Source of the DNA: Amphiscolops sp. MND2022
Lineage: Eukaryota
DNA: 64,000 nucleotides
Assembly: GCA_964187785.1 (NCBI GenBank)
Contig: OZ076409.1
Location: 72,232,001-72,296,000 of the forward strand
Reading direction: 5' to 3'
Notes under the pieces: model-generated
Databases searched by the model: none
What the model was told of the DNA's origin: nothing
Seen by the model: only the letters and a program-made list of their open reading frames with translations
Translations under genes and position numbers: made by a program
Shown here: piece by piece, positions 581-60,556 of the stretch
How positions within the stretch are numbered: the stretch's first letter is position 1
Layout of the letters: every line of letters starts with the position of its first letter

Positions 581-1860
581 GTGGCCGTGTCTTTTCGACG
601 TGCTTTTGCATTGAGGAGTGGGTAGGGCCCCGCGACGACCTAGAAGAATTGGATGCTCACCGAAACGTGCAGAATTCTACGAGATCTCATAGTTTGAGCC
701 ATACGATTTTTCTGAAATTTGGCATGTGGCCTGGAATTGGTGAGTAGGTAAAACGTGTAGAAGGTAATTTTTCCCAAATTCCACTGTGAGAGGAGATATG
801 GGCAAATAACGGACCCAAAAATGGCAAAAATGCACATTTTTCAACTTTGTCAGCCAATATCTCTTTTCCAGGTGCCCATAGCGTTCCGCACGTGGACGTC
901 AATATTGCTCAGCGCTGTTGGAGGAGTGCGTGGACAAATTTTGGTTTGAATCGGACTGAAACTTGACGAGAAATTAACGGTTTTTTGGGCGTTTCCGGGG
1001 TAAATTTTTTAACGGTCCAGCTTATCTTTGCCATTTTTTCGAAAATGTACATGCCTAAAGGCCTCCCCCTGGCCGAATTTACTCCCAGCAAACCCATTTG
1101 GCCCTAAATACGGAGTTTCAGCGTTCCAGCATTCCGGGGCGGAAAGTTGTGGGACTTGGAAAAATTTCAAAATTTTTTCAAAATTTTTTTTTCCCGTTTT
1201 CCGGGCCCCCAATGAAGGGGAACGACCCCCCAACCAGTATTTTGAGTGAATTCATGTGGAACGCCCATGTTTGGAGGAGAAAAATGCCGTTTAGCACATA
1301 TTTTTATCTTAACTTGACATTGACTTATGACGTTTTGAATGTGATGTTAGGATATATGAAGCATGTTAAAAGTTGAAGTTTTGAGTCTTTATCTCATCGG
1401 AAAACCATTGAGATACAAGCAGTTTTGCTAAAAACGATTTTCATTGTAGGTTAGCAGAGTATTAGTACACTTTGATGTCATTTGAGTATTTTTTTCTTCT
1501 ATATAATAACTGTTTTTATGTATTTATTCCAATTTATCTCATCTTTTAACATCAAGCAGTTGAGTACATTTCATCTCCCTTTCGGGGGAGATGAGAATGT
1601 ACTCGCTAAAAACCTAATGCTATGGCGCCAATGTTTGGATGGGAAGTTTTCTATGCTTTGAAAAAAGTTATTTTTAATTACTTGATTTTTTAAAACAATA
1701 ATTAACATGAAGTACATTACTTGCTCCTACTACTACCACCATACATCTCTAACGTCAACGCCCCCTGCTTGCATCAACGCCCACCGTCCGTGGGCATGCC
1801 GAGGCATGCCCTTCGACGACGTATGCCAAATGCCCAGTGCCACGCAGTCATTATCGCTAG
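581..1860 (+). repeat. Unit U1, family B (1280 bp)
   Basis: Starts GTG; B-family block CCTAAAGGCCTCCCC...GTTGTGGGACTT at 1054-1157; H2 hairpin at 1562-1604; core at 1792. Confidence 0.9.
1792..1821. promoter_or_regulatory. Conserved core palindrome / p53-family-like response element (representative of 29 copies)
   Basis: GGGCATGCCG|AGGCATGCCC matches 2 x RRRCWWGYYY with no spacer at 19/20 positions; followed by invariant TTCGACGACG. Function is inferred from motif match only. Confidence 0.5.
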
Positions 1861-1893
1861 GTGCGGGGGGGAAACCCCAACAAAATTTTTGGA

Positions 1894-1917
1894 GGATTCG
1901 GGTAGGGTCCTGAATCC
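1894..1917 (+). other. Left-end stem-loop with TAGGGT-type loop (representative)
   Basis: GGATTCGGG-TAGGGT-CCTGAATCC; stem sequence changes between families while pairing is kept. Confidence 0.75.
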
Positions 1918-3371
1918 GAGTTCAGTGCTGCCAGCTTTCGTTAAGAAAATTTGGATAGGATTCGGGATCTCGTGATCTAACCATAGGATTTTAAAGTTGG
2001 AGCGGCCCCCACCAGATTTTCCGAAAATTAGCGCCCCCCACCGGGTTCCATACCCCGGAAAATTTTTTTCTGGCCACACGGGCGACCGTTAGGGGGTCAT
2101 TTTAGGGGTAAAATTCATATTGGGCCACATAACTTTTTTTCTGTTGATTTAAAACTTTGGGACCCTGCTAAAAGTTTCTTGACCGTGTTGCAAGGGCTCC
2201 GGAGGTCCAAACCAAATTTTTCTAGCTTGAAGCTATCTCCAAGTACCCCCCCGCCCAAAACGTTATTTTTCCGGAAACGCAGGTTTTTGACCCGGAAGGA
2301 GTCGTCTGAGCGCGGGGTCGTTAGGTGATGTATTGGGGACGGCCTTGAGACGAAGTGGGGGACATGTAGTTTGTCAACCTCAGTTTACCCCCCAGACAGG
2401 AAATGACCGTTATATGAGCGGGAAAATTGCCCCCCTCCACGTTTTACCGCTATTTCCGGTGTGAAGGAGTGGGAGTAGCGCGTCGGGTGTTAAATAAAAA
2501 AAGTAGGTTTAGACAAGAAACTATCGGAAACATGTAGTTTGGGACCCCCTGGTCCAACCCGTTAGCGGGAAATGGGACTTCCGCCTCCTTTTTTTACTGC
2601 TAAAACCATAAAATGGGCATTGAGGGGTAAATATCTCGTGAACGCGTGGAGCAATCGTGTCCATCACTACTACAAGGTTTCATACCCATGATATGGTGCC
2701 TTCAGGGGGGCAAACAGATTTCCGCTATCTATCACCGTTACCGACTTGGCCCCCCAGCCTAACCGCTATGTGACCGGAAATGTCCATTTTTGAGCCCAAA
2801 GGGTCGGTCCCAGCCGGGGAACGTTAGGTAACTTATTGTAGTACTCAATGAGACGAGTTTGGGGATATAGTTTCAGTCACCCCCCGTTACCCCTTGGGAC
2901 CGGAAATGACCGTTATGTGGGTAAAATTGCAATTTTTATACTTTTTCAAGTGTATTTAGGTGCGGAAGGAGTGGTAATAGGTGCTTGGACACTATATGAG
3001 GTAAGGGAGGACGTGAGGCGAGCATTCGGAAATAACCGTTATGTTGACCCTAAAGTCCCCCTGGTACCGTAAACGACCGGAAATGGTCAAATTTTGTGTC
3101 TATTGGTTACAAATGTTTAGTATTTTGTAGATAAAAGTATCTATTAGGTGTTTCGACGGTCTGCAATAGTGAACATAGTCATGAAACCTTGTGGGGGGTA
3201 ACGGTATATAGCACCGGAAGTCCAAACCGTTGGAGACAGGATGAGTTTTTTGGTTTTAAAATGTCTTTCGGTGTTCCTTTGTCGACTATTAAGGACTATT
3301 TTTAAAAATTAAAGTTTTTCCATATAGTTTCAGAGACTCCGAAACCTCAACCAACATAACCGTTACATTTT

Positions 3372-3415
3372 GATAGCCTTTCAAGTTGGCCTGGTGTCAA
3401 CTTGGAAGCGCTATC
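3372..3415 (+). other. Hairpin H1 (families A, C, D; representative)
   Basis: GATAGCCTTTCAAGTTGGC-loop-GTCAACTTGGAAG(G/C)GCTATC, ~19-bp imperfect stem. Confidence 0.75.
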
Positions 3416-6400
3416 CTTCTGAAATCGTTAATCAAGAGTGTTTTTGGGTAGGTATATATTGCATTAGTACCAATTAGAGCTTCATCAACAGTGTATCAAC
3501 GACAAAAACTATGCCGTCATGATTCCGTTATTAGAATCATAGTGAGCAAATTGTTGAAAAAAATGGTTTTTTCCATACAAAATGTGTCCTAAATGCCAGG
3601 AAACCTATTTACCTAACAAATGGTATTAATTGGAATGTATGTAACAGATTTATAAAAGTTCAAATTGAATATTACATTTCATTATGGAAGCTGAAACGTC
3701 ATATTTTAGTTTAATTAACGTCAACGCCACACACTTTACATCAACGCACACCGTCTGTGGGCATGCCGAGGCATGCCCTTCGACGACGTATGACAAATCC
3801 ATATCAAACGACGCCCGTACATCCCGGGCTAGGTGCGGGGGGGTAACCCCAACAAATATATTGGAGGATTCGGGTAGGGTCCTGAATCCGATTTTAACTC
3901 TAATAGCTATCGATAGGAAATCTTGCAAAAATTTCGGGATCTCGTGATCTAACCATAGGATTTTAAAGTTGGAGCGGCCCCCACCAGATTTTCCAAAATT
4001 ATTCGCCCCCCACCGGGTTCCAGCGTGATTGAAATATTTTGTCGGGGTACACGGGCGACCGTTAGGGGTCATTTTGGGGGTAAAATTTATAAAAGTTCGC
4101 ATAACTTTTTTCCTGTTGGTTTAAAACTTTAGGACCCTGCTAAAAGTTTCTTGACCATGTTGCAGGGGCCCCGGAGGTCCAAACCAAATTTTTCTATCTT
4201 GAAGCTATCTCCAAGTACCCCCCCGCCCAAACCGTTATTTTTCCGGAAATGCCGGTTTTTGACCCGGAAGGAGTCGTCTGAGCGCGGGATCGTTAGGTGA
4301 TGTATTGGGGACGGCCTTGAGACGAAGCGGGGGATATATAGTTTGCCGACCCCAGTTTACCCCCCGGACCGGAAATGACCGTTATATGAGCGGGAAAAAT
4401 GCCCCCCTCCACGTTTTACCGCTATTTCCGGTGTGAAGGAGTGGGAGTAGCGCGTCGGGTGCCATACATCAAAAGTAGGTTTAGACAAGGACCTATCGGA
4501 AACATGTAGTTTGGGACCCCCTGGTCCAACCCGTTAGCGGGAAATGGGGCTTCCGCCTCCTTTTTTTACTGCTAAAACCGTAAAATGGGCATTGAGGGGT
4601 AAATATCTCGTGAACGCGTGGAGCAATCGTGTCCATCACTACTACAAGGTTTCATACCCATGATATGGTGCCTTCAGGGGGGCAAACAGATTTCCGCTAT
4701 CTATCACCGTTACCGACTTGGCCCCCCAGCCTAACCGCTATGTGACCGGAAATGTCACTTTTTGAGCCCAAAGGGTCGGTCCCAGCCGGGGAACGTTAGG
4801 TAACTTATTGTAGTACTCAATGAGACGAGTTGGGGGATATAGTTTCAGTCACCCCCCGTTACCCCTTGGGACCGGAAATGACCGTTATGTGGGTAAAATT
4901 GCAATTTTCATACTCTTTGAAGTGCATTTAGGTGCAGAAGGAGTGGTAATAGGTGCTTGGACACTATATGAGGTAAGGGAGGACGTGAGGCGAGCATTCG
5001 GGAATAACCGTTATGTTGACCCCAAAGTCCCCCTGGTACCGTAAACGACCGGAAATGGTCAAATTTTGTGTCTATTGGGTACAAATGTTTGGTATTTTAT
5101 GGATAAAAGTACCTGGAAGGTGTTTTAAAGGCCTCCAGAATTGAACATAGTCATGAAACCTTGTGGGGGGTAACGGTATATAGCACCGGAAGTCCAAACC
5201 GTTGGTCACAGAATAGGTTTTTTGGTTTCAAAATGTTTTTAGGCATAGTTTTGTGGGTTGAATCGTCATAATATCAACTAATACGGACTTTTTTTCGGAA
5301 ATAAATTTTTTTCACATTAGTTTCAGGGACCTCCAATGCTTCAGTCAACATAACCGTTACATTTTGATAGCCTTTCAAGTTGACCTGGTGTCAACTTGGA
5401 AGGGCTATCCTTCTAAAATTGTTAATCAAGAGTGTTTTTGGGTAGGTATATGTTGCATTAGTACCAATTAGAGCTTCATCAACAGTTTGCCAACGGCAAA
5501 AACGATGTCGTGATAATTCCGTTATAAAAATATTAGTTAACAAATTGTTTTCAAAGTTGATTTTTTCCATTAAAAATGTGTCCTAATGCCACCAAATTGA
5601 ATAAAATGGTATTGACTAAAACTAAATAACAATGAAAAAGAAGATCAACATTTTTATTAGGTCTCATTATGGAAGCTGAAACCTCACGTTTTAGTTTAAT
5701 TAACGTCAACGCCACATACTTTACATCAACGCCCACAGTCTGTGGGCATGCCGAGGCATGCCCTTCGACGACGTATACCAAACAACCTCCATATCTACAC
5801 CCACCCGCGGTAGCAGCTAGGTGCGGGGGGGTAACCCCAACTTTTTTCTTGGAGGAATCGGGTAGGGTCCTGATTCCGAGTTCAGTGCCGCCAGCTATCG
5901 TTAAAAACCTATACCTTTTAAACCCGATCTCGGGAACTAACCACGCCCCTTCTTTAATTTTTTGGCCCCCACTCACTTTTTGATAGTAGATTGCCCCCCA
6001 CTGGGTTCCAAGTTGGGCAAAAATGGAGATCATGGGTAACGGGGACCGTTAAGGGGTAACTCAGGGGGTAAAATTTATTTTTTGCGTCATATCTTTTCCC
6101 CCCGTGGATTTAGCGCTTCCGGTCAGCAGACAAAACCTCATGTACGTGATACGGGGCCTCCATAGGTCCAAACAAAATTTTTCTATCATGCACCGTTACG
6201 GACTTGGCCCCCCGGCCCAACCGTTATTTTACCGGAAATTGCACTTTTTGACCGGGAAGGAGTCGTCTGAGCACGGAGTCGTTTGGTAATGTTTTGTAGT
6301 GCATCTGGAGACGTGTTGGGGGACATGTAGTTTTCCGGCCCCAGTTTACCCCCCGGACGGGAAATGACCGTTATGTGAGTTTTAAAACTACCCCCCTTCA

Positions 6401-7807
6401 ATTTTCCCCGTTATTTCCGGTGTGAAGGAGTGGGAGTAGCGCGTCGGGTGCCATATATCAAAAGTAGGTTTAGACAAGGACCAACCGGAAACTTGTGGTT
6501 TGGGACCCCCTGACCCAACCCGTTAGCCGTTATAAGGGTGATCGCCTCCTTTTTTTACTCTCAAAACCGGAAAACGGGCATTGAGGGGTAAATATCTCGT
6601 GAACGCGTGGAGCAATCGTGTCCATCACTACTACAAGGTTTCATACCCATGATATGGTGCCTTCAGGGGGGCAAACAGATTACCGCTATCTATCACCGTT
6701 ACCGACTTGGCCCCCCAGCCTAACCGCTATGTGACCGGAAATTGCACTTTTTGAGCCCAAAGGGTCGATCCTAGCCGGGCAACGTTAGGTAACTTATTGT
6801 AGTACTCATTGAAACGAGTTGGGGGACATAGTTTCAGTCACCCCCCGTTACCTCTTAGGACCGGAAATGACCGTTATGAGGGTAAAATTGCAATTTTTAT
6901 ACATTTTGAAGGGCATTTAGGTGCGGAAGGAATGGTAATAGGTGCTTGGACACTATATGATGTAATGGAGGTCGTGAGGAGAGCATTCGGAAGTAACCGT
7001 TACGTTGACCCCAAAGTCCCCCTGGTACCGTTAACAACCGGAAATGGCCAAATTTTGTGTTTATAGGGTACAAATGTTTGGTATTTTATGGATAAAAGTA
7101 CCTGGAAGGTGTTTTAAAGGCCTCCAGAAGTGAACACAGTCATGAAACTTTGTGGGGGGTAACGGTATATAGCACCGGAAGTCCAAACCGTTGGTCACAG
7201 AATAGGTTTTTTGGTTTCAAAATGTCTTTAGGCGTAGTTTTGTGGGTTGAATCGTCATAATATCAACTAATACGGACTTTTTTCGGAAATAAAATTTTTT
7301 CACATTAGTTTCAGGGACCTCCAATGTTTCAGTCAACATAACCGTTACATTTTGATAGCCTTTCAAGTTGGCCTGGTGTCAACTTGGAAGGGCTATCCTT
7401 CTAAAATCGTTAATCAAGAGTGTTTTTGGATAGATATATGTTGCATTAGTTTCAATTAGAGCTTCATCAACAGTTTGCCAACGGCAAAACAATGTCGTGA
7501 TAATTCCGTTATATTAATTAACAAATTGATTCCAAAGTTGATTTTTTCCATTCGAAATGTGTCCTAATGCCACCAAATTGAATAAAATAATAAATGGTAT
7601 TGACTAAACCTAAATAACATTGAAAAAGAAGCTCAACATTTTTAATAGGTCTCATTATGGAAGCTGAAACCTCACGTTTTAACTTAATTAACGTCAACGC
7701 CACATACTTTACATCAACGCCCACCGTCTGTGGGCATGCCGAGGCATGCCCTTCGACGACGTATACCAATTACATATATATCTACACCCACCCGCGGTAG
7801 CAGCTAG

Positions 7808-10380
7808 GTGCCGGGATTTCTATTCGTTCGAGTATGTGGCGCGTGTGGGTAGGGCCCCTGGCGCGCTCTTTTATTTCGGGTACACCTACTCCAAATTCAC
7901 GATGTGATTTCGACGATCTCGTAAACTAGCCACACGATTTGGCTGAAATTTGGCACACGTACCCCCCTCGGCACGGTGAAGATGATTTCCTACTGACGTT
8001 TTTCCCGCTAAACATTTTTTGTTGACCAAAATAACGGTTTTTGGGGTAAAATTTTCAACTTTTTTCAAATTTTATCTTATATCTCGCTACAGGTACACGC
8101 TAGCGCTTCCAAACCTTGCTGACGAAAGTTTGCAAACTGTCTCAGGAATGCTGTGTGAAATTTTTAGCTCAATCGGACTTAAACTCGAGGAGATATAGCG
8201 TTTTTCCGGAGCGGGGGGGTTTCATTTTTCTAACGGTCCAGCTTATCTTTGCCATTTTTTCGAAAATGCACTCGCCTAAAGGCCTCCCCTGGCCGGTTTT
8301 ATTCCCAGCAAAACCATTTGGCCCTAAATACGGAGTTTCAGCGTTCCAGCATTCCCGGGCGAAAAGTTGTGGGACTTAGAAAATTTCAAAAATTTTCAAA
8401 AATTTTTTTTTCCGTTATTTGGGCCCCCAAAGTGGGGGAAAAGACCCCCCAACCAGTAAAGCAAGTGAATGCATGTGCAAAGCCCTTGTTTAGAGGAGAA
8501 AAATGCCGTTTAGAACGTCTTTTTATCTTGGCTCAACGTTGACTTATGACGTTTTGAAGGTGATGTTTGGAGGTGTAAATCACGTGAATAGTAAACGTTA
8601 TGAGTATTTATCTGATCTGAAAGCCATTGAGATGCAATATGGTTTGCTCAAATCGTAATTCATGGCAGTTTGGCAATCAATCAACACCCTTTGTTGTCGT
8701 TTGACATACTTTTTTGTTGTTATAATAAAAATTTTGTGTATTTGTTCATTTTTTTCTCATCAAATAACTTGAAACAGTTGAGTACATTCCATCCCCCCTT
8801 CCGGGGGAGATGAGAATGTACTCGCAAAAAGCAGCGAATTACGGCCCTTACCTTCCCGAGCTACGCAGTATAAGGATTACATATTGGTTCCGACATTTTC
8901 ATAGAGTTAAATCTTGGTAATCTGTCTGGATATGCAGAAAAATCAGCACGTGCCTTTTAATACCAAGTTGCTCACAACGACAATTATTTTATATCAACGC
9001 CCCCATATTTATCAACGCCCCCCGTCCGTGGGCATGCCGAGGCATGCCCTTCGACGACGTATACCAAGATATGCGTTAACGCGTTAGCCTAGGTGCCGGG
9101 ATTTCTATTCGATAAAGTATGTGGCGCGTGTGGGTAGGGTCCCTGGCGCGCTCTTGGGTATGGTGTTCACCAGCTAGGAAATAGGGGTCGATTTTTCGGG
9201 ATCTCCTAAACTAGCCACACGATTTGGCTGAAATTTGGCACACGTACTCCCCTCGGCATGGTGAAGATGATTTCCTACTAGCGTTTTGCTCGCAAAATTT
9301 TTTTTGTTGTCCAAAATAACGGTTTTTGGGGTAAAAATTTGAATTTTTTTTAAATTTTATCTTATATCTCGCCACGGGTTTACGCTAGCCGCGCCGCACC
9401 TTGCTAAGCTTATTTTGCAAACTGTCTCAGGAATGCTGTGTGAAATTTTCAGCTCAATCGGACTTAAACTCAGGGAGATATAGCGTTTTTCCGGAGCGGG
9501 GGGGTTTCATTTTTCTAACGGTCCAGCTTATCTTAGCCATTTTTTCGAAAATGTACTCGCCTAAAGACCTCCCCTGGCCGGTTTTATTCCCAGCAAAACC
9601 ATTTGGCCCTAAATACGGAGTTTCAGCGTTCCAGCATTCCCGGGCGAAAAGTTGTGGGACTTAGAAAAGTTCAAAAATTTTCAAAAAATTTTTTTTCCGT
9701 TTTCTGCCCTCCCCCCCTAGGGGAAAAGACCCCCCAACCAGTAATTTGAGTGAATTCATGTGGAAAGGCCATGTTTAGAGGAGAAAAATCCCGTTTAGAT
9801 CGTCTTTTTATCTTTATTCAACGTTGACTTATGACGTTTTGAAGGTGATGTTTGGAGGTGTGAAGCACGTGAAAAGTAAACGTTATGAGTATTTATCTGA
9901 TCTGAAAGCCATTGAGATGCAACCTGTTTTGCTCAAAACGTAATTCATATCAGTTTGGTAGTCAATCAACACCCTTTGTTGTCATTTGACATCTTTTTTT
10001 GTTGATATAAGAAAAAATTTCGTGTATTTATTCATTTTTTTCTCATCAAATAACTTGAAACAGTTGAGTACATTCCATCCCCCCTTCACGGGGGAGATGA
10101 GAATGTACTCGCAAAAAGCCCCGAACTACGGCCCTTACCTTCCTGAGCTACGCAGTATAAAGATTGCATATTGGTTCCGACATTTTGATAGAGTTATATC
10201 TTGGTAATCTGTCTGGGTATGCAGAAAAACAAGCACGTGCTTTTTTATACCAAGTTGCTCACAACGACATTTATTTTATATCAACGCCCCCATATTTATC
10301 AACGCCCACCGTCCGTGGGCATGCCGAGGCATGCCCTTCGACGACGCGCACCAAAATATTCCCCGAGCGCGTTAGCCTAG
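7808..10380 (+). repeat. Two family-B units: U5 7808-9092 (1285 bp), U6 9093-10380 (1288 bp)
   Basis: Similar to each other; both start GTGCCGGGATTTCTATTC; share the B block and H2 hairpin with U1; cores at 9030, 10317. Confidence 0.9.
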
Positions 10381-13300
10381 GTGCGGGGGGGTAACCCCAA
10401 CAAATATATTGGAGGATTCGGGTAGGGTCCTGAATCCGATTTTAACTCTAATAGCTATCGATAGGAAATCTTGCAAAAATTTCGGGATCTCGTGATCTAA
10501 CCATAGGATTTTAAAGTTGGAGCGGCCCCCACCAGATTTTCCGAAAATTAGCGCCCCCCACCGGGTTCCAGCGTGATTGAAATATTTTGACGGGGTACAC
10601 GGGCGACCGTTAGGGGTCATTTTGTGGGTAAAATTTATAAAAGTTCGCATAACTTTTTTCCTGTTGGTTTAAAACTTTAGGACCCTGCTAAAAGTTTCTT
10701 GACCGTATTGCAAGGGCTCCGGAGGTCCAAACCAAATTTTTCTATCTTGAAGCTATCTCCAAGTACCCCCCCGCTCAAACCGTTATTTTTCCGGAAACGC
10801 AGGTTTTTGACCCGGAAGGAGTCGTCTGAGCGCGGGGTCATTAGGTGATGTATTGGGGACAGCCTTGAGACGAAGTGGGGGACATGTAGTTTGCCAACCT
10901 CAGTTTACCCCCCGGACGGGAAATGACCGTTATATGAGCGGCAAAAATGTCCCCCTCCACGTTTTACCGCTATTTCCGGTGTGATGGAGTGGGAGTAGCG
11001 CGTCGGGTGCCATATATCAAAAGTAGGTTTAGACAAGGATCTATCGGAAACATGTGGTTTGGGACCCCCTGGACCAACCCGTTAGCAGGAAATGGGGCTT
11101 CCGGCCCGTTTTTTTACGGTTAAAAACGGAAAATGGGCATTGAGGGGTAAATATCTCGTGAACGCGTGGAGCTACGGTGTCCTTCACTACTACAAGGTTT
11201 CATACCCATGATATGGTGCGTTCAGGGGGGCAAACAGATTTCCGCTATCTATCACCGTTACGGACTTGGCCCCCCAGCCTAACCGCTAAGTGACCGGAAA
11301 TGTCATATTTTGAGCCCAAAGGGTCGGTCCCAGCCAGGGAACGTTAGGTAACTTATTGTAGTACTCATTGAGACGAGTTGGGGAACATAGTTTCAGTCAC
11401 CCCTCGTTACCCCTTGGGACCAGAAATGACCGTTATGTGAGTAAATTTGCCGTTTTTGTCCTACTTGAAGGGCATTTAGATGCGGAATGAGTGGTAATAG
11501 GTGCTTGGACACTATATGAAGGAAGGGAGGATATGAGGCGAGCATTCACAAATAACCGTTATGTTGACCCTAAAGTCCCCCTGGTACCGTAAACGACCGG
11601 AAATGGTCAAATTTTCTGTTTATAGGGTACAAATGTTTGGTATTTTGTAGATAAAAGTATCTATTAGGTGTTTCGACGGTCTGCAGTAGTGAACATAGTC
11701 ATGAAACCTTGTGGGGGGTAACGGTATATAGCACCGGAAGTCCAAACCGTTGGAGACAGGATAGGTTTTTTGGTTTTAAAATGTCTTTCGGCGTACTTTT
11801 GTCGACTATTAAGGACTACTTTTAAAAATTAAAGTTTTTCCATATAGTTTTAGAGACTCCGAAACCTCAACCAACATAACCGTTACCTCATGATAGCCTT
11901 TCAAGTTGGCCTGGTGTCAACTTGGAAGGGCTATCCTTCAAAAATCGTCAATCAAGTATGTTTTTGGGTATGTTTGTATCATTTTAGAATCAAATAGAGC
12001 TTCAAGAAAAGTTTGCCAACGACAAAAACTATGTCGTGATGATTCCGTTATTAGAATAATAGTTAGCAAATTGTTGAGAAAATTGATTTTTTCCATATAA
12101 AATGTGTCCTAAATGCCAGGAAACTTATTTAACTAACAAATGGTATTGATTGGAATGTATGTAACAGAGTTATAAAAGTTCAAATTGATTATTACGTTTC
12201 ATTATGGAAGCTGAAACGTAATATTTTAGTTTAATTATCGTCAACGCCACACACTTTACATCAACGCCCACCGTCTGTGGGCATGCCGAGGCATGCCCTT
12301 CGACGACGTATGGCAAATCCCTTCTAACGACGCCCGTACATCCCGGGCTAGGTGCGGGGGGGAAACCCCATCCCTTATCTTGGAGGATTCGGGTAGGGTC
12401 CTGAATCCGAGTTCAGTGCCGCCAGCTCTCAGTAGAAATCTGGGAAATTTTTTGCGATCTCGTGATCTAACCATAGGATTTTAAAGTTGGAGCGGCCCCC
12501 ACCAGATTTTCCAAAGTTATTCGCCCCCCACCGGGTTCCAGCGTGATTGAAATATTCTGACGGGGTACACGGGCGACCGTTAGGGGTCATTTTGGGGGTA
12601 AAATTTATATCCGGTCGCATAACTTTTTTCCTGTTGGTTTAAAACTTTGGGACCCTGCTAAAAGTTTCTTGACCGTGTTGCAGGGGCCCCGGAGGTCCAA
12701 ACCAAATTTTTCTATCTTGAAGCTATCTCCAAGTACCCCCCCGCCCAAAACGTTATTTTTCCGGAAACGCAGGTTTTTGACCCGGAAGGAGTCGTCGGAG
12801 CGCGGGGTCGTTAGGTGATGTATTGGGGACGGCCTTGAGACGAAGCGGGGGACATGTAGTTTGCCGACCCCAGTTTACCCCCCGGACGGGAAATGACCGT
12901 TATTTGAGCGGGAAAAATGCCCCCCTCCACGTTTTACCGCTATTTCCGGTGTGAAGGAGTGGGAGTAGCGCGTCGGGTGCCATATATCAAAAGTAGGTTT
13001 CGACAAGGATCTATCGGAAACATGTGGTTTGGGACCCCCTGGACCAACCCGTTAGCAGGAAATGGGGCTTCCGGCCCGTTTTTTTACGGTTAAAAACGGA
13101 AAATGGGCATTGAGGGGTAAATATCTCGTGAACGCGTGGAGCTACGGTGTCCATCACTACTACAAGGTTTCATACCCATGATATGGTGCCTTCAGGGGGG
13201 CAAACAGATTTCCGCTATCTATCACCGTTACCGACTTGGCCCCCCAGCCTAACCGCTATGTGACCGGAAATGTCACTTTTTGAGCCCAAAGGGTCGGTCC

Positions 13301-49856: not shown

Positions 49857-51144
49857 GTGGCCGGAAATTTTTTTTTTCATCAAAATCTTTGCCATTGGGG
49901 GAGGGGCCCCGGATGGCCAGTAGTACGGGATAGCTTCCTACCAAATCCAGATGGAAAAAACGTGATTTCGGAAACTAGCCGTCAGAATTTGCTCAAATTT
50001 TGCATACGGCTTCCTATGACAATCCTAAGAACTAATCCCTACTGGCATTTTGCCCAAAAAACGCAAAAAGTTGGTCAAAATCTTAGTTTTTTGGTCAAAA
50101 AATGGCAATTTTTCGAAAAAAATTTCTTTCAGAGACAATTACTCGTAACTGGTTCACCCAGCGCAAAAACGCCTAGCTGATTTATTGTTGGGCACTTCAT
50201 GAGGAGTGCGTATACAAATTTTCGTCTAGATCGGAAGAAAAATGACTAAGTATTAGCCGGAATTCGAACGCATTTTTTCGCAAGTTTTTGAAAACCTAGT
50301 CTATCTCTGCCGTTTTTTGCCCAGATTTTTTTCCAGGTCCTCTCCTAAAGGCCTCCCCTGGCCGGTTTACTTCCCAGAAAAACCATTTGGCCCTAAATAC
50401 GGAGTTTCAGCGTTCTAGCATTCCCGGGCGAAAAGATGTGGGACTTAGAAAAAATTCAAAATTTTTCAAAAAATTTTTTTTTCGTTTTCCGGCCCCCCAA
50501 TGAAGGGGAACGACCCCCCAACGAGGATTTTTGGTGAATTCACGTGGAAAGGCCTTGTTTTGTGGAGAAAATTGCCGTTTAGAGCGACTTTTTATCTTAA
50601 CTTGACGTTGACCTCTGTCGTTTTGAATTTGATATTAGTATGCGTTGAGCATGTGAAAAGTTGATGATTTCAGTTGTTCTCTCGTGTTCAAGCCATTGAG
50701 ATACAAGCGGTAGTGATCAAAATGTGATTTATCGCAATTTGATGGTGCTTTTGGTGTATTTTGATTCTTTTAAATAAAAAGTTGTTCTTTATATATTTGG
50801 TGTATTGATTCAAATGAACAAGAAACAGTTGAGTACATTTCATCTCCCCCCTTGTGGGGGAGATGAGGATGTACCCGCTAAATGACACGCACAATGGCCC
50901 AATTTTATTTTTATGCGACGTTTTCTAGGCTTTTGCGCAAGCCCACTAAAATTTAGACTGGTTTCCTTTTCTTTTACTCCAAAATTTTCCGTACTAACCA
51001 CCTTACGCACCACCAGCTCAACGTAATATCTGTAACGTCAACGCCACATACTCGCATCAACGCCCACCGTCCGTGGGCATGCCGAGGCATGCCCTTCGAC
51101 GACGTATGCCAAATAGCGCCACAGGGCGCAAACTTGTCCGCTAG
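49857..51144 (+). repeat. Unit U23, family B, divergent (1288 bp)
   Basis: B block at ~50344-50446; H2 hairpin at ~50831; core at 51075. Confidence 0.88.
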
Positions 51145-53118
51145 GTGCGGGGGGGTAACCCCAACAAAGATATTGGAGGATTCGGGTAGGGTCCTGAATC
51201 CGATTTTAACTCTAATAGCTATCGATAGGAAATCTTGCAAAAATTTCGGGATCTCGTGATCTAACCATAGGATTTTAAAGTTGGAGCGGCCCCCACCAGA
51301 TTTTCCGAAAATTAGCGCCCCCCACCGGGTTCCATACCCCGGAAAATTTTTTTCTGGCCACACGGGCGACCGTTAGGGGGTCATTTTATGGGTAAAATTC
51401 ATATTGGGCCACATAACTTTTTTTCTGTTGATTTAAAACTTTGGAAGCCTGCTAAAAGTTTCCTGACCGTATTGCAAGGGCTCCGGAGGTCCAAACCAAA
51501 TTTTTCTATCTTGAAGCTATCTCCAAGTACCCCCCCCCGCTCAAACCGTTATTTTTCCGGAAACGCAGGTTTTTGACCCGGAAGGAGTCGTCTGAGCGCG
51601 GGGTCGTTAGGTGATGTATTGGGGACGGCCTTGAGACGAAGTGGGGGACATGTAGTTTGCCAACCTCAGTTTACCCCCCGGACGGGAAATGACCGTTATA
51701 TGAGCGGCAAAAATGTCCCCCTCCACGTTTTACCGCTATTTCCGGTGTGATGGAGTGGGAGTAGCGCGTCGGGTGCCATATATCAAAAGTAGGTTTAGAC
51801 AAGGATCTATCGGAAATATGTGGTTTGGGACCCCCTGGACCAACCCGTTAGCAGGAAATGGGGCTTCCGGCCCGTTTTTTTACGGTTAAAAACGGAAAAT
51901 GGGCATTGAGGGGTAAATATCTCGTGAACGCGTGGAGCTACGGTGTCTTTCACTACTACAAGGTTTCATACCCATGATATGGTGCGTTCAGGGGGGCAAA
52001 CAGATTTCCGCTATCTATCACCGTTACGGACTTGGCCCCCCAGCCTAACCGCTAAGTGACCGGAAATGTCATATTTTGAGCCCAAAGGGTCGGTCCCAGC
52101 CAGGGAACGTTAGGTAACTTATTGTAAAACTCATTGAGACGAGTTGGGGGACATAGTTTCAGTCACCCCTCGTTACCCCTTGGGACCAGAAATGACCGTT
52201 ATGTGAGTAAATTTGCCGTTTTTGTCCTACTTGAAGGGCATTTAGATGCGGAATGAGTGGTAATAGGTGCTTGGACACTATATGAAGGAAGGGAGGATAT
52301 GAGGCGAGCATTCGGAAATAACCGTTATGTTGACCCTAAAGTCCCCCTGGTACCGTAAACGACCGGAAATGGTCAAATTTTCTGTTTATAGGGTACAAAT
52401 GTTTGGTATTTTGTAGATAAAAGTATCTATTAGGTGTGTCGACGGTCTGCAGTAGTGAACATAGTCATGAAACCTTGTGGGGGGTAACGGTATATAGCAC
52501 CGGAAGTCCAAACCGTTGGAGACAGGATAGGTTTTTTGGTTTTAAAATGTCTTTCGGCGTACTTTTGTCGACTATTGAGGACTACTTTTAAAAAATTAAA
52601 GTTTTTTCATATAGTTTTAGAGACTCCGAAACCTCAACCAACATAACCGTTACCTCATGATAGCCTTTCAAGTTGGCCTGGTGTCAACTTGGAAGGGCTA
52701 TCCTTCAAAAATCGTCAATCAAGTGTGTTTTTGGCTATGTTTGTATCATTTTAGAATCAAATAGAGCTTCAAGAAAAGTTTGCCAACGACAAAAACTATG
52801 TCGTGATGATTCCGTTATTAGAATAATAGTTAGCAAATTGTTGAGAAAATTGATTTTTTCCATATAAAATGTGTCCTAATTGCCAGCAAACCTATTTAAT
52901 TAACAAATGGTATTGATTGGAATGTATGTAACAGAGTTATAAAAGTTCAAATTGATTATTACGTTTCATTATGGAAGCTGAAACGTAATATTTTAGTTTA
53001 ATTAACGTCAACGCCACACACTTTACATCAACGCCCACCGTCTGTGGGCATGCCGAGGCATGCCCTTCGACGACGTATGGCAAATCCCTTCTAACGACGC
53101 CCGTACATCCCGGGCTAG
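51145..53118 (+). repeat. Unit U24, family A (1974 bp)
   Basis: Closely resembles U7 (10381-12351); core at 53046. Confidence 0.9.
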
Positions 53119-54400
53119 GTGCCGGTGTTTTTCACGACAAAGAAAGTTGCGCGCTTTGGGTAGGGTCCCGGCGCGCTTTTGGGGTTCATTTTAACAACCT
53201 GATCTCCCGTTGCACGTATGTCCGATTTTCCAAACTATCCTACCAATTTTGCTGAAATTTTGCATGTGAGTCCCTATGGACATTCTAAGAACAAATCCCT
53301 ACTGGCGTTTTGCCCGGAAAATTTTTTTTGTTGACTTATTGACAATTTTAGGTGCCGAAAATGACGTTTTTTCAAAAAAAAAAATTTTAAGAGCCCATAT
53401 CTCGCTCCCAGGTGCCCGGAGCGGGTCGCATGTGGACGTTGATATTGCTAGACACTTCGTAAAGAGTCTGTAGACAAATTTTGGTTCAGATTGGATGAAA
53501 ATTGATTGAGTAATAGCCGCAAATTGGACGCATTTTGTCGAAATTTTTCGAAACCCCAGTCTATCTATGCCGTTTTTTGCCCAGATTTTTTTCTAGACCC
53601 TCTCCTAAAGACATCCCCTGGCCGGAATACCTCCCAGCAAAACCATTTGGCCCTAAATACGAAGTTTCAGCGTTCTAGCATTCTCGGGCGAAAAGTTGTG
53701 GGACTTAAAAAAATTTTTTTGAAAACGCAAATTGTGTAAAGTCAACTTCAGGCCTCCCAAAGTCAAGGAACTTCCACACAACTAGTATTGCAAGTGAATG
53801 CATGTGGAAAGTACTTGGATAGACGAGAAAAATGAGCTACTATAAATCTCTGTAGCTTAACCTGACGTTGACTTATGACAATTTTAGTGTGAGCTTGCTA
53901 TGTGAGAAAAAAATTCAAAATTGAAAATCGAAGCTAAGTCTCATCCAAAACTCATCGGAACACGTTCAATCCATCCCAGAGCGGTTTAATTCCAGCTATA
54001 TAATGCAGCAACACTATTCAAGACCATTTGATCTACTTACATTAGTTTTGACACCGTATTATTCATCCGAGAGCACAAAACAGTTGAGTACATTCCATCT
54101 CCCTTTCGGGGGAGATGAGAATGTACTCGCTAAAGTCCAGGTACTACAGCCCATATTTGTTTTTATGCGACGCTTTTTTGGTTTGTATGCTAGTGCGTAC
54201 ACGTATTAATCTTTTACCATATTTTTTGTCGTCTGCAGTTTGCTTTTGACTTGACATAAACTGAACGTTTTGTCCTTACAACATACACATTACTAACGTC
54301 AACGCCCCATCCTTGCATCAACGCCCACCGTCCGTGGGCATGCCGAGGCATGCCCTTCGACGACGTATACCAAGATATACATAAGCGCGGTAGCCGCTAG
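53119..54400 (+). repeat. Unit U25, family B, divergent (1282 bp)
   Basis: B block at ~53604-53706; H2 hairpin at ~54086; core at 54336. Confidence 0.88.
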
Positions 54401-56402
54401 GTGGGCGGTAGGTTTCCCGTAGTCAAAAAAAAATTGCAGGCCGGGGTAGGGGCCCTGGCCGAGGCAAAATACCATAGAAAAGGTACCAAATTATGTGAGT
54501 TTAGAAAATTGAGCCATACAAATTCTCTGAAAATTGCTGTGTGTACCCTATCGCCCAATCTAAGAACTTTTTCCTGCTGACGTTTTGCCCTCCAAATGTT
54601 ACTAATATGACTTTTTGAAAAATTTATCTCTGGTTTTTCATCAAAAATAGTGATTTTGGCAATTTTTGTGAAATATCTCTGATTGCGTTAATTTTTGGAC
54701 GTTGACTGTGAAACAAGCTCGGAACCATCATTTCGTGACCATAGCAATGCACTAAACACAAAAGATGTAGAGTTTTTAAATTTTTTGAAAATTTGACATT
54801 TTTAAATTTTTTTCACTACTATCAGTACCATATATGTCAAAATAACCTCAGAAAAATTTTTTTATTTTATTTAATTTAGAATCCTTGCTATCCATGGTTT
54901 CTGTTAGTATCTACTCGCTGCCAGAGACTCAACAGTTAGCATCGAATCTGAAATTAAAAATTTTTTCGAGGTCATAGGTGTTTCACAAGGATTTCACAAC
55001 ATAGTCTTGTTTTACAAATAGGTCATTTACAACATCATATTTTCATCGAGGCATGTCGGATATAGTCTTATTGCTCACGAACGGTCCTACTGGCAACGTA
55101 ATAACCATTTATAGAAATATTAAGTTTTTAAAAAATCTTTTCACCCGTTCTTCAGACATTTTTCAGACATTCGGAACTTAACTTAGAAAAATTTCGTCTC
55201 AAAAACCCATTTTTCGTCAGGTCGAAATTTGAAATTCAGTTTTTGAAGCACAAATATGCACTCTGACGTAACCAGTAGGGCCAATGATACTCAACAACAC
55301 CATTGAGACTGGTATCAGTCGCTCCAAAAACATATGAGCCGTGATAAGACGTTTTTTCAACAATACTGTTCAATTGATGTAAACATCGCGGAAGCCTTGG
55401 ATTACAGTGAAAGTTGATTTGAACAAAAATTTACTCTTTTTTGTCAATCACTATGTAGACAGAATGCGTAGGGTAAGTTTCAGCACTAATATGAAGATTT
55501 TGAAGGAATCGGGTTGCTCAAGGCGTGGTATGAGACACTTTTTTCTCATATACTAGTGTTTTTCAAAACCTTTTCGTTAAATATCTCGAAAAGCAAACAT
55601 TAAAAAATACTTTCTGATATCTAATTTAATTCCTAGATTATAAATGAATCATGTGGTTGATCAGAAACTCTCTACTTTAATGTTTCCAGAAAAAAATCCC
55701 TTCCCATGTTTTATATCTGTAGCAGTAAAAAAAGTAGACGCTAAAAATACGCTATTTTGCTAAGATTGAATTGCAATTGTTTAGCTTTAAAACTCTTTTA
55801 ATACTTCTAACGCCACCTTAAGGACTCAAGATGATTGAAAATGTCAATCACAATGCTGACATGTAGTCTTTCTACGATCCTGGCTGGACAGATTTTGATT
55901 ATTTTTCAAGTACCTGTTAACTGAATCTCGTGATAGCCTTCTAAGTTGACCTTCTGCGTCAACTTGAGAAGGCTATCACTAAAATAAACTAAATTCTGAT
56001 TTGTTTGTTTGTTCCTAACGTCTTTTGGTACGATCGTCTTACGGTTAGTTGGTTAAACCAGGTCGCTTATACTTCCACAATTTTCGACCACCGTCCGTGT
56101 ATTCGGTTCACACGACTTTACATTTTCAGTCGTTTGTTTTCGATAACTATCACAATGTACTGCCATTAGCGCAAAATTCATACTAGTACTTGGTTGGTTG
56201 AAATACTTAAACAACTGTTTCCATAGTTATTCGCGGTGATGGTACAATCCGCGCGCCTACATACCTACGGCGTCTTGCCACTACAACGCCACATAGGGAA
56301 ACAACGCCCATAGTCCGTAGGCATGCCGAGGCATGCCGAGGCATGCCTTTCGACGACGCGCGCCAAATCTATGCGCGCCCGCACTTGTGCGGTAGCTGCT
56401 AG
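54401..56402 (+). repeat. Unit U26, family C, divergent (2002 bp)
   Basis: Colinear with U17/U21; H1-type hairpin at 55930-55979; core with an extra decamer at 56319-56348. Confidence 0.88.
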
Positions 56403-58373
56403 GTGCGGGGGGGAAACCCCAACAAAATTTTTGGAGGATTCGGGTAGGGTCCTGAATCCGAGTTCAGTGCTGCCAGCTTTCGTTAAGAAAATTTGGATAG
56501 GATTCGGGATCTCGTGATCTAACCATAGGATTTTAAAGTTGGAGCGGCCCCCACCAGATTTTCCAAAAATTAGCGCCCCCCACCGGGTTCCATACCCCGG
56601 AAAATTTTTTTCTGGCCACACGGGCGACCGTTAGGGGGTCATTTTAGGGGTAAAATTCATATTGGGCCACATAACTTTTTTTCTGTTGATTTAAAACTTT
56701 GGGACCCTGCTAAAAGTTTCTTGACCGCGTTGCAGGGGCCCCGGAGGTCCAAACCAAATTTTTCTATCTTGAAGCTATCTCCAAGTACCCCCCCGCCCAA
56801 AACGTTATTTTTCCGGAAACGCAGGTTTTTGACCCGGAAGGAGTCGTCGGAGCGCGGGGTCGTTAGGTGATGTATTGGGGACGGCCTTGAGACGAAGTGG
56901 GGGACATGCAGTTTGCCAACCCCAGTTTACCCCCCGGACGGGAAATGACCGTTATATGAGCGGCAAAAATGTCCCCCTCCACGTTTTACCGCTATTTCCG
57001 GTGTGAAGGAGTGGGAGTAGCGCGTCGGGTGCCATATATCAAAAGTAGGTTTAGACAAGGATCTATCGGAAACATGTGGTTTGGGACCCCCTGGACCAAC
57101 CCGTTAGCAGGAAATGGGGCTTCCGGCCCGTTTTTTTACGGTTAAAAACGGAAAATGGGCATTGAGGGGTAAATATCTCGTGAACGCGTGGAGCTACGGT
57201 GTCCTTCACTACTACAAGGTTTCATACCCATGATATGGTGCCTTCAGGGGGGCAAACAGATTTCCGCTATCTATCGCCGTTACCGACTTGGCCCCCCAGC
57301 CTAACCGCTATGTGACCGGAAATGTCACTTTTTGTGCCCAAAGGGTCGGTCCCAGCCGGGGAACGTTAGGTAACTTATTGTAGTACTCATTGAGATGAGT
57401 TGGGGGACATAGTTTCAGTCACCCCCCGTTACCCCTTAAGACCGGAAATGACCGTTATGTGAGTAAATTTGCCGTTTTTGTCCTATTTGAAGGGCATTTA
57501 GATGCGGAAGGAGTGGTAATAGGTGCTTGGACACTATATGAGGTAAGGGAGGATATGAGGCGAGCATTCGGAAATAACCGTTATGTTGACCCCAAAGTCC
57601 CCCTGGTACCGTAAACGACCGGAAATGGTCAAATTTTCTGTTTACAGGGTACAAATGTTTGGTATTTTGTAGATAAAAGTATCTATTAGGTGTTTCGACG
57701 GTCTGCAGTAGTGAACATAGTCATGAAACCTTGTGGGGGGTAACGGTATATAGCACCGGAAGTCCAAACCGTTGGAGACAGGATAGGTTTTTTGGTTTTA
57801 AAATGTCTTTCGGCGTACTTTTGTCGACTATTAAGGACTACTTTTAAAAATTAAAGTTTTTCCATATAGTTTTAGAGACTCCGAAACCTCAACCAACATA
57901 ACCGTTACCTCATGATAGCCTTTCAAGTTGGCCTGGTGTCAACTTGGAAGGGCTATCCTTCAAAAATCGTCAATCAAGTGTGTTTTTGGGTATGTTTGTA
58001 TCATTTTAGAATCGAATAGAGCTTCAAGAAAAGCTTGCCAACGACAAAAACTATGTCGTGATGATTCCGTTATTAGAATAATAGTTAGCAAATTGTTGAG
58101 AAAATTGATTTTTTCCATATAAAATGTGTCCTAATTGCCAGGAAACCTATTTAACTAACAAATGGTATTGATTGGAATGTATGTAACAGAGTTATAAAAG
58201 TTCAAATAGATTATTACGTTTCATTATGGAAGCTGAAACGTAATATTTTAGTTTAATTAACGTCAACGCCACACACGTTACATCAACGCCCACCGTCTGT
58301 GGGCATGCCGAGGCATGCCCTTCGACGACGTATGGCAAATCCCTTCTAACGACGCCCGTACATGCCGGGCTAG
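56403..58373 (+). repeat. Unit U27, family A (1971 bp)
   Basis: 5' end like U2/U15, 3' end like U7/U24; core at 58301. Confidence 0.9.
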
Positions 58374-60556
58374 GTGGAGGTTATTTTATAATAATTAAAG
58401 TGTTTTTTTCCGGAGTTTGTGGCTTTGGAAAAAACAAAAGGCGAGAAATTGGGCACTCCGGGCTGAACCGTAAAGGCCGATTTTATACTGTAAAAAACGC
58501 CCATTCTAACTACGATCTTGAAACCCAGCCGTACGTTTTTGCTGAAAATTTGCATGCGGCTACAAAATCAGATTCTAAGAACTTTTTTCTGCTGACTTTT
58601 TTTTGGAATTTTTTTGTACGTTTCCCCCCCGCCCCCTAAAGGGGTCAATTTTCCCCAATTTTGTACTTATGAGTCATATTCTCAAAACTGGTTGATCTGA
58701 GAGCAATCCTTGTGGAGAGAACTTTTGTAGAGCGCTCTTCAGTTGACTTTTTGGAGTTTTTACTTTGGTGGTACGTTCACCCCCCACAGCGGAAATAGCG
58801 TTTTTGTAACTTCCGGTCGAGCAATTTTCCACCCAAAAATTAGAATTATGCCAGTTTAGAGCACGAAGCAGTAGTTTTAGCGTGTTCATACTCTCCTGAA
58901 GTTTTGTTGGGCGTATTGAGGTAGACATGATATCAAGTGTTCAGTTCACCCCCATCACCCCCTGGACCGGAAATGAACTTTCTTTTTTCCCCTTTCTTAC
59001 AGGAAGTGTCGATTTTCACCGGTAAGGAGTCCTTGTACGAGCAACTAGCAGGGCATCAAAATTGACGTACCACCTGGGGTCAACTTAGTGACCACGTGTT
59101 GTCCAGTCATGGGTACCGCCATGACCGGAAATGGGGTCAAAACCCCCCTTTTAGTTGTTATTTTATCAATTTGACTAGTGTTTGGTCCACATTCAAGTCG
59201 CGTAAAACAATTGAACCTGTGTGAGCATAAACTGCATGTTCACTGCGTAGACGTAACAGACACTGCCAGATACCGGAAGTAACCCCCGTGACCGGAAGTT
59301 GTCATTTTTGACCGGAAATGGTCCAAAAAATAGCGTAAATGCAGTTTTTCACTGCTTTTTAAGGTCAAGTTATTACTTTTTTCAATCTGCACGAGCTTGT
59401 CTTCAGGTTCGCTTTTGTTACCCGTGCACAGCGCAACAAATATACATCTGTAAAATTTTCTCTATAATATCGTCGGAGAGAGAAATAACGGGTTATTGGG
59501 GCTTTTTTTCAAAAATATTAGTCTATATCTGTAATTTTTGTCCAAAGTTATTCAACAGTACTACCACAGAGGTTAGTCTCTGCCCAAATACATGCCTAAC
59601 AAAACTACTTGTCACATTCGTCTCAGTTTGAGCGCTCCAGCTTTGCCTGGTCATAAGTTAAGTGACATAGAAAATTTTCATTTTTTTTCAAAAAAAATTT
59701 CTCGCCTTCAGTTCCTCCAAAGTAAAGAAACTTCCACACAACTAGGATTGCAAGTGGATGCATGTGGCAAGCCCTATAATTGAAGCACAAAAAACCGCTT
59801 AGGACGTCTCTTTATCGTAATTTGACGTTAACGTATGGTGCTTTGAATGAGAGCTTGCTAAGGGGTCGAGAAGTCAAAGTATGTAAATGGAACGTATGTC
59901 TCGTCGAAAAGTCATCGGAATACATGCAATGAACCCCAATTGCCCTCAATTGCAGCTGCCTAGTGCAACAACGTCTTTCAGGGACCTTTAACCTATTTTT
60001 ATTAGTGTCAAAACTATTTTAAATTCAGTTAGCAAGAAACACTTGAGTGCATTCTCATCTCTCCCCAGCGGGTGAGATGAGAATGTTCTTGCTAAAAGCC
60101 AGGTACTACGGCCCACTTTTGTTTTAATGCGACGCATTCTCTGCTTTAGCACATAGATATTTTTATTTCGCCTGATTTTCTGTATACACTCTGACTTGTT
60201 ATTATGAGTTCCTCGTCATTACTTTACATAAATTTACAATCATCAAACGTTATCGTCAACGCCATATAGATTTAGGCGCCCACCATTCCGTAGGTATGTC
60301 CAGGCACACTTTTCGATTACGTATGTCAAAACGCAAACGCGATAAAAAGTGCTAAAATTCAGAAACAGTGACAAACAAATTTGACTATTTGACATATGGG
60401 AGGTTTTCATATGGAACTTACACATAGCTGACATTTCACTACATTGCAGCTGACGCCCACATACCAACATCAACGCCCACTGTCCGTGGGCATGCCGAGG
60501 CATGCCCTTCGACGACGTATGGCAATTACCTTCCACCGACGCGCACTCTCCCCTAG
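58374..60556 (+). repeat. Unit U28, family F (2183 bp; D-like 5' half, B-like 3' half, decayed extra core)
   Basis: 59271-59340 matches D at ~33041-33110; 59715-59770 matches U25 at ~53755-53810; H2-type hairpin at 60045-60090; decayed core at ~60255-60330, intact core at 60488. Confidence 0.82.

Follow-up and report, generated by a model that had tools for sequence, protein, structure and literature searches.

Constrained unit spacing in a mixed head-to-tail array of possibly Helitron-like elements from Amphiscolops sp. MND2022

Why should repeat units with unlike interiors have nearly the same length? The question is raised by a window of 64 000 nucleotides (the whole stretch analysed; contig OZ076409.1), of which a sequence-only reading had claimed that unit lengths are quantised across dissimilar families at about 590 + 697n bp and that length itself is constrained, for example by nucleosome phasing. 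The 28 complete units, delimited by CTAGGTG, fill positions 581–60556 in the order B, three A, two B, ten A, C, D, E, E, C, E, B, A, B, C, A, F, and both window edges hold partial units. CTAGGTG was counted 29 times on the + strand and twice on the − strand (3.35 predicted from shuffles), and no telomere repeats were found in the window. All units lie on the same strand and both termini are common to all families; family identity changes exactly at the 7-mer, which is kept in the context S-CTAGGTG-S-N-N-G with G/C-rich flanks at all 29 junctions. At the 15 heterologous junctions tested (12 types) the nearest neighbour of the spacer shared the upstream family in 11 cases and the downstream family alone in none; for the sequence after the junction the downstream family was shared in 11 of 15 and the upstream family alone in one, D and F being singletons and hence unmatched in this test. 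The sequence shared at the switch point is 7 bp only. Contigs of one sequencing run, compared with positions 53000–60700, matched stretches of four families (B, C, A, F) at 80–99%; one of them passes a junction by 14 letters, which is less than the bridging threshold. Coordinates are given in Table 1.

Table 1. Positions of the array, its unit families and its terminal and internal features in the window.
Feature	Position	Strand	Remark
Head-to-tail array	577–60559	+	29 invariant CTAGGTG junctions bounding 28 complete units
Junction CTAG/GTG, example	12348–12354	+	Family switch point
A run, ten units	10381–30202	+	1971–1994 bp
Further A units	1861–7807 (three), 51145–53118, 56403–58373		
A internal similarity, 503-bp offset	10688–11450	+	Unit positions ~308–570 versus ~811–1070
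B unit, example	53119–54400	+	1282 bp
Other B units	581–1860, 7808–9092, 9093–10380, 49857–51144		
C unit, example	30203–32185	+	1983 bp
Other C units	43103–45087, 54401–56402		
D unit	32186–33571	+	1386 bp; colinear with F front, weak relation to A
E unit, example	38340–43102	+	4763 bp
E units E19 and E22	33572–38339 and 45088–49856		
Tandem repeats in E, four of 335–336 bp	40570–41920	+	
Same E-type 335–336-bp repeats elsewhere	35805–37063, 47322–48580, 62789–64000		
F unit	58374–60556	+	2183 bp
Sub-terminal core, example	12279–12308	+	Invariant; 20-bp palindrome plus TTCGACGACG
5′ end, example	12358–12408	+	Two stem-loops, compensatory changes between families
Hairpin H1 (internal), example	11892–11935	+	Once per A, C and D unit
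Hairpin H2 (internal), example	54086–54128	+	Once per B, E and F unit

The lengths reported earlier were reproduced: A 1971–1994 bp (n = 15), B 1280–1288 bp (n = 5), C 1983, 1985 and 2002 bp, D 1386 bp, and E 4763, 4768 and 4769 bp. F (2183 bp) comes to ~1982–1987 bp without its extension, because a decayed core at 60292, followed by ~196 bp closing with an intact core and CTAG, is accompanied by a self-match at offset 196. The description of the families as dissimilar was not borne out. All are alike over the first ~190 bp and the last ~110 bp; the front ~1480 bp of C and E can be aligned at 79–86%; and F consists of a D-like front (offset +33 to +42) and a B-like rear (offset ~690–725). E is made up of a C-like first ~1478 bp, a diverged copy at offset 722, four 336-bp repeats and a B-like rear. 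A units are recombinant mosaics whose short and long subtypes are a single ~20-bp indel apart, with no significant alternation of the two in the A run (p = 0.17). Adjacent copies in the array are 10–20% divergent, and growth of the A run by local tandem duplication was rejected, since neighbouring A units are not closer than the average A pair (87.3 versus 88.4% identity, p = 0.83). Pairwise identity among B units is 59–90%; E19 and E22 are 99.1% identical and have different neighbours on either side.

The 697-bp ladder likewise did not hold. Its two parameters are set by B and A, after which the per-copy spread allows E anywhere from 4703 to 4890 bp; the residuals are −2 (B), −3 (A), +6 (C), −5 (E), +99 (D) and +199 bp (F). 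No 697-bp module was found in the unit sequences, the actual internal steps being 196, 336, 503 and 705–725 bp. The quantum is not a physical module, and two of the six classes lie off it. Period scans over 140–800 bp gave p = 0.23–0.94 with the classes as observed and p = 0.02–0.04 only with F minus 196 bp substituted for F. The agreement of A and C by itself has p ≃ 0.11 under log-uniform lengths, and that of A, C and the shortened F at ~1985 bp p ≃ 0.001; as the families share their ends and exchange modules, the number of semi-independent lengths falls to about five. Strict length quantisation is unproven. Uniformity of length within families is inherited: it follows from common descent, with indels probably purged or compensated.

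The proposal that length is constrained stood in part: spacing looks constrained, as judged from the rarity of indels in A and C/E, the periodicity and the A and C interiors that do not align, but not by a 697-bp quantum. An A-versus-C alignment, which the sequence-only reading had suggested in case A and C were colinear homologues that simply inherited their length, did not show the interiors to be colinear (z = 0.23, against 5.6 and 6.4 for the positive controls), so such inheritance is not what was found; four segment tests were also negative (z −0.4 to 0.6), and profile scans gave no further match beyond three anchors. Neutral sequence is expected to accumulate ~5–15 substitutions per indel. 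The substitution:gap ratio was 26–123 in A and in the C/E front, where the high gap penalty may undercount indels. A units of ~80% mutual identity had drifted by a net +1 bp in 1427 bp, and C from E by 2–4 bp in ~1470 bp. Raw gaps in B were not clearly few (22–38 in nine of ten pairs), and the B net-length test gave p = 0.05–0.47 from non-independent pairs. An AA/TT period of 9.9–10.5 bp (~10.3 bp) was present in all six families (z 5.9–12.3); this signal may be genome-wide in the host. The best A/T periods coherent across families were 164–180 bp. Net shifts of 5–25 bp fell near multiples of 10.4 bp in 11 of 16 hand-picked cases (p = 0.01–0.06 by size law), which is suggestive only. Chromatin is probably the source of the spacing constraint. 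A ladder of nucleosome-sized steps (160–185 bp) in total length was rejected (p = 0.58–0.95).

A true quantisation of whole units, with length selected to fall on ~99-bp multiples (or on ~198-bp multiples, B then moving as pairs) through circles closing over whole nucleosomes or an array kept in register, is rather doubtful; it concerns length and would fit either mobility mechanism considered below. Class means divided by 99.2 give 12.94 (B), 13.97 (D), 20.0 (A/C), 22.0 (F) and 48.0 (E), with p = 0.006–0.032 for scan ranges whose lower limit was set at 30–80 bp and for two null models, but this ladder is post hoc and uses five class values, two of them from single copies. Over 60 kb, 25 of the 29 junctions fall at a phase of 32–50% of a 198.3-bp period, the four outliers sitting between paired B units, and periods of ~180 bp and 10.5 bp in eccDNA length are described across species in the portion consulted of bioRxiv 10.64898/2026.10.19.760212. 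Against this, the p value of the order test rises from 0.009 to 0.028 and 0.086 when sister B copies are kept together, 198 bp alone fits poorly (p = 0.36), the internal steps of 336 and 722 bp lie off the ladder, and the sequence has no 99-bp signal and, outside C, no signal at 198 bp.

The invariant palindrome of the core sits 61–76 nt upstream of the unit end and the 3′ edge of the core about 30–45 nt upstream of CTAG; the core fits two p53-family decamers in all 29 copies, including one variant with an additional decamer (C unit 54401–56402), and two CAACGC-like direct repeats precede it in 26 of 29. Immediately before CTAG, where HLE1 (canonical Helitron) elements carry a short hairpin ~10–12 nt from CTRR, part of the spacers form a clear hairpin of −5 to −13 kcal/mol and many a weak one (MFE −0.2 to −2.3 kcal/mol in 10 of the 19 folded). 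At the 5′ end the loop motif of the second stem-loop (+36 to +44) is conserved in 27 of 28 units and missing in F; hairpin covariation on the + strand amounts to 27 double-sided changes versus 11.9 in shuffles (0 of 500 shuffles). Internally, H1 and H2 are mutually exclusive and one or the other occurs in all 28 units; H1 lies at unit position 1511–1534 in A, 1532–1542 in C and 1036 in D, about 500 bp nearer the start.

These features are best read, with a probability of roughly 0.55, as non-autonomous elements of rolling-circle (Helitron-like) type that were inserted head to tail into a nuclear array. The unit interiors consist of modules that have been swapped, duplicated and recombined, and their A/T organisation has periods of ~10.3 bp and ~165–180 bp. 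A transposase encoded elsewhere would peel units off as circles, which would insert at an existing end-to-start junction and so build a mixed array; the new 3′ end of F may have arisen by read-through or terminal duplication. Excerpts of PMC4778049 and PMC5876387 describe precise end-to-start circles, cleavage of junction oligonucleotides and bypass of 3′ ends for Helraiser, and excerpts of PMC7492417 and PMC12001565 central repeats of 140–180 bp in Helitron2/HINE elements. Purging of indels would most likely keep the two ends in phase with each other, both helically and on the nucleosome scale, and length differences between families would come from nucleosome-scale modules gained, lost or swapped, a turnover expected to yield loosely preferred sizes (e.g. 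~1985 bp) but not a strict quantum of 697 bp. The array model alone leaves the agreement of A, C and shortened F within ~10 bp and the ~99-bp fit unexplained.

A eukaryotic integron-like system, in which non-coding circles sharing a rolling-circle origin integrate serially and a ~99/198-bp chromatin register filters their size, is unlikely. The origin would comprise the direct repeats, the p53-like palindrome, the nick site CTAG/GTG and the two folded hairpins, and only register-keeping circles would propagate, so that unrelated interiors converge on sizes. A tyrosine-recombinase (Crypton-like or integron-like) cassette array with circles integrating at a 7-bp overlap, CTAGGTG, one copy each, is unlikely too: every unit is indeed bounded by this direct repeat, shared with its neighbour, and the portion of PMC3212892 consulted gives Cryptons 4–6-bp terminal direct repeats and proposed circles, and recombinases spacers of 6–8 bp. 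Inverted binding arms around the 7-mer were not seen, however, animal Cryptons are without terminal repeats in that same portion, and three traits are typical of Helitrons: CTAG with an upstream palindrome, central repeats of the ~168-bp type and the acquisition of a second 3′ end.

The hairpins could instead be the RNA of a host array of small RNA genes, resembling spliced-leader or snRNA genes and separated by spacers that vary; the core would then be a promoter element and AG/GT a splice donor. G-U-type pairs in the hairpins do favour the + strand and the two-decamer pattern is present in every core, but the idea is very improbable: the would-be leader and Sm-site positions lack conservation, no Rfam family reached its gathering score anywhere in the window, a search of 28000–34000 at E ≤ 5 gave nothing convincing, no tRNA was found, and a family switch in the 7-mer instead of the 50-bp shared core is the opposite of what homologous exchange between gene copies should produce. 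Kinetoplast minicircles have a conserved core with a variable interior, size classes and phased A-tracts, as do these units, yet organellar or viral minicircles (kinetoplast-like or polydnavirus-like, whether joined by the assembler or concatenated in reality, with sizes set by replication or packaging) are scarcely credible, given that 7 bp shared at the switch point is too short for assembly chimeras, neighbouring copies diverge as stated, nucleosome-scale periodicity is present, AGCT overlaps only nine of 29 junctions, 29 ORFs (27 of the 59 listed and two others) have no Pfam match at curated cut-off, and the CSB-3 dodecamer is absent at 0–1 mismatch, its 21 matches each having two mismatches and falling mostly at one recurrent site per unit. 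The 36-nt core pattern had no match in metagenome contigs, core-pattern searches of viral contigs and prokaryote genomes were empty as well, and blastn gave no match in plasmids; three metagenome matches to a looser pattern were rejected as GC-rich chance (similarity over 20–23 bp only).

Should the array of Helitron-like elements be confirmed, it would represent a rolling-circle group whose 5′ end is non-canonical and which uses its own junction as the target, so forming mixed arrays; Helitron finders based on termini would overlook such a group. A chromatin effect on size is usually argued from satellite monomer lengths alone; here the cores mark unit lengths exactly, and a histogram of these lengths over the whole genome would be a direct test of chromatin selection of transposon size. 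If the ladder fails genome-wide, the locus is still a clean case of conserved spacing amid sequence turnover.

Neither the core nor a multi-family array with a CTAGGTG junction was found in the freely accessible literature searched; the families may already be catalogued, for instance in Repbase or Dfam. Measured against HLE1, a 3′ CTRR terminus is present as CTAG at 29 of 29 junctions (the cut would lie within CTAGGTG), and a 5′ TC at none, GTG following CTAG in all 29 with no TC within 6 nt. Of the HLE2 features, terminal or subterminal inverted repeats (11–16 bp) reached at best 9 of 12 at inconsistent positions in the 14 of 28 units tested, and the G/C-rich junction shows neither T/T insertion nor T-rich termini; as to central repeats of ~140–180 bp, the units show 336-bp repeats in E, the 503-bp offset in A and a compositional period of ~165–180 bp, but an alignable ~170-bp monomer was not recovered. 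With no TC starts and no terminal inverted repeats, neither Helitron class fully fits. As far as the excerpts of PMC11417382, PMC4778049 and PMC5876387 go, HLE1/Helraiser tandem arrays share with this one the 3′ CTAG with an upstream palindrome, head-to-tail junctions without evident target duplication, non-coding copies and a fresh 3′ terminus lying beyond a decayed one, but their palindrome lies ~11 nt from the end, their 5′ end is TC and their target lies between A and T, whereas here the 5′ end is GTG and structured and six families are mixed at one junction. Helentron/HINE/DINE-1 elements (HLE2; parts of PMC4067079, PMC7492417 and PMC12001565) resemble these units in shared terminal modules, interiors organised at ~165–180 bp, internal repeats (336 bp here) and hairpins at both ends, and differ in subterminal inverted repeats, T-rich flanks and a microsatellite, all absent here, and in interiors that here are mostly too decayed to recognise as tandem repeats. 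Replitrons and Cryptons (portions of PMC10288648 and PMC3212892) have a short direct repeat at both termini and non-autonomous derivatives; Replitrons have fuzzy right ends and Cryptons 4–6-bp repeats, and those portions describe mixed tandem arrays for neither. The Helitron-derived subtelomeric arrays of Hydractinia (excerpts of PMC11934779) and the Helitron-associated centromeric clusters of Meloidogyne (excerpts of PMC13404089) are likewise long gene-free tracts of Helitron-like units, in Meloidogyne with discrete size classes (~1.5 and 3.5 kb). They are either degenerate arrays of one family that propagated locally or elements situated between satellite arrays, whereas the present units have intact termini and do not lie next to their closest relatives.

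The window lacked coding capacity and was repetitive throughout. All 29 CTAGGTG sequences on the + strand were preceded by a near-invariant palindromic element (the core), and the 28 complete non-coding units running from one CTAGGTG to the next (families A–F) had the lengths claimed by the sequence-only reading. Because F contains a decayed core and matches itself at offset 196, its length without the ~196 bp terminal extension (F′) was taken as ~1982–1987 bp. Two minus-strand CTAGGTG matches, at an equal position within E units and not kept in C, are probably incidental.

Unit families and features (window positions)
Feature	Units	Length (bp)	Positions	Remark
A	15	1971–1994		
B	5	1280–1288		
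C	3	1983–2002		
D		1386		
E	3	4763–4769		
F		2183	60292	decayed core
H1 example			11892–11935	long internal hairpin
H2 example			54086–54128	long internal hairpin, unrelated to H1
B pairs			1–1860, 7808–10380, 49857–54400	
Core example			12279–12298	
Decamer duplication			56319–56348	in core
Stem-loop example			12385–12408	+33 to +58 of unit
A/E spacers			18250–18306, 38283–38339	core to CTAG
Minus-strand CTAGGTG			38576–38582, 60793–60799	in E

Site-specific joining of a mixed array is well supported. At the 15 heterologous junctions (12 types), the sequence before CTAGGTG tracked the upstream family in 11 and that after it the downstream family in 11 (singletons being unable to match). Two E units of 99.1% identity had different neighbours at both ends, and adjacent A units were not each other's nearest relatives; on both counts local duplication was rejected. 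A crossover in the longer core was rejected because the family switch falls at CTAGGTG. Together, the switch, the E neighbours and the A adjacency therefore argue for joining at the 7-mer, presumably by an enzyme. In one A unit the spacer from core to CTAG was almost identical to that of two E units, and occasional 3′-end exchange between families inside the core is therefore indicated.

The core, in 29 of 29 cases, matched the consensus of a tandem p53-family response element; its two sequence variants and single decamer duplication preserve the match. The 5′ end of the unit formed two hairpins with compensatory changes, a structure derived from these same sequences, so that the controls are biased in its favour. 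In the stem-loop at +33 to +58 the outer stem covaried freely and the G-rich loop was conserved; F lacked it, and its 5′ end is AT-rich yet folds as two hairpins.

The families had been regarded as dissimilar; judged by their common ends and swapped segments, they are relatives and mosaics. The first ~190 bp and last ~110 bp were common to all, in register, and C aligned with E over ~1480 bp (79–86% identity). After this C-like front E continued with a 722-offset copy, four 336 bp repeats and a B-like rear, and F joined a front resembling D (offset +33 to +42) to a rear resembling B (offset ~690–725). A showed internal similarity at a 503 offset, and D was weakly related to A (z 3.9 in register, 4.4 with a 500 shift). 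Exactly one internal hairpin was found per unit (28/28), H1 in A, C and D and H2 in B, E and F; these mutually exclusive hairpins are possibly interchangeable functional sites, e.g. a second-strand origin. Since site incompatibility among A units rose from 0.07 to ~0.25 with growing distance and nearest neighbours shifted from one part of the unit to another, A units are recombinants. Transversions predominated among their substitutions (357 against 263 transitions, counted in two pairs), and changes were unevenly spread, with identity as low as 60% in the first 300 bp where the middle reached 90%. In the proposed check for hidden homology between A and C, three anchors (5′ end, H1 and core) were in register, but no alignment of the interiors was found (z 0.23; controls 5.6 and 6.4).

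The lengths had been fitted to 590 + n × ~697 (n = 1, 2, 6), with B and A setting the two parameters. Of the other classes, C and E fitted, E in such a way that any value in 4703–4890 would pass given copy spread; D missed by +99 and F by +199. No 697 bp module was found in the window sequence (steps seen: 196, 336, 503, ~500, 705–725 and 722), and a period scan (140–800) gave p 0.23–0.94, or 0.02–0.04 with F − 196 in place of F; the 697 bp ladder is unsupported. A 160–185 bp ladder failed on unit lengths. A period of 99.2–99.4 fitted all classes (13, 14, 20, 22 and 48 steps; p 0.006–0.032), post hoc and on five values only. One phase of 198.3 bp was shared by 25 of the 29 junctions, the outliers sitting between paired B units; the order test weakened to p 0.03–0.09 once sister B copies stayed together. 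No 99 bp signal was found in the window sequence, and the post hoc ~99/198 bp ladder is a prediction rather than a result. B alone was half a 198 bp step off; its units formed two pairs of adjacent sisters (98% identical over the common part in one, 90% in the other) and one B–A–B. A preferred size (~1985 bp) is best supported by A, C and F′ lying no more than ~10 bp apart, a match with p ~0.001 if lengths are log-uniform; this match could also stem from an old ~1985 bp frame with its interior replaced or saturated.

The claim that length is constrained found partial support, as a constraint on spacing. Register drifted by 1 bp over 1427 bp between A units ~80% identical and by 2–4 bp over ~1470 bp between C and E; substitution:gap ratios were 26–123 in 12 pairs (high gap penalty applied), the neutral ratio being ~5–15. 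AA/TT recurred every 9.9–10.5 bp in six of six families (z 5.9–12.3) and A/T tracts every ~165–180 bp. In B, internal offsets wandered by up to 20 bp and came back to within 8, but raw gaps were numerous and the net-length test was non-significant for individual pairs. We infer nucleosome-related selection on spacing; the A/T periodicity could also be a genome-wide trait. A 10 bp periodicity is mentioned for C. elegans Helitron minisatellites (preprint 10.64898/2026.08.08.743475).

No protein family matches were found in 29 ORFs, no RNA or tRNA family matches in the window, and no outside homologs except partial matches in one sequencing run. Repeat style and a CpG o/e of 0.97 tentatively suggest an animal host. 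A Crypton-like recombinase is a possible builder of the array (cf. PMC3212892), Replitrons as described in PMC10288648 being a poorer fit. Canonical Helitrons (HLE1) are defined in PMC11417382 by a 5′ TC, by CTRR together with a hairpin, and by insertion between A and T; the Helentron/HINE class (HLE2) is defined there by short inverted repeats. The window units had the CTAG end but neither the 5′ TC nor, in the 14 units tested, the inverted repeats; the array therefore works in the manner of a Helitron array yet belongs to neither HLE1 nor HLE2 as defined. Accounts of Helraiser describe precise end-to-start circles, cleavage of junction oligonucleotides and 3′-end bypass (PMC4778049, PMC5876387); non-canonical ends and self-insertion of Helitrons (PMC5148889, PMC13085455, PMC4067079) and Helitron-derived arrays (PMC11934779, PMC13404089, PMC12001565) are likewise already described.
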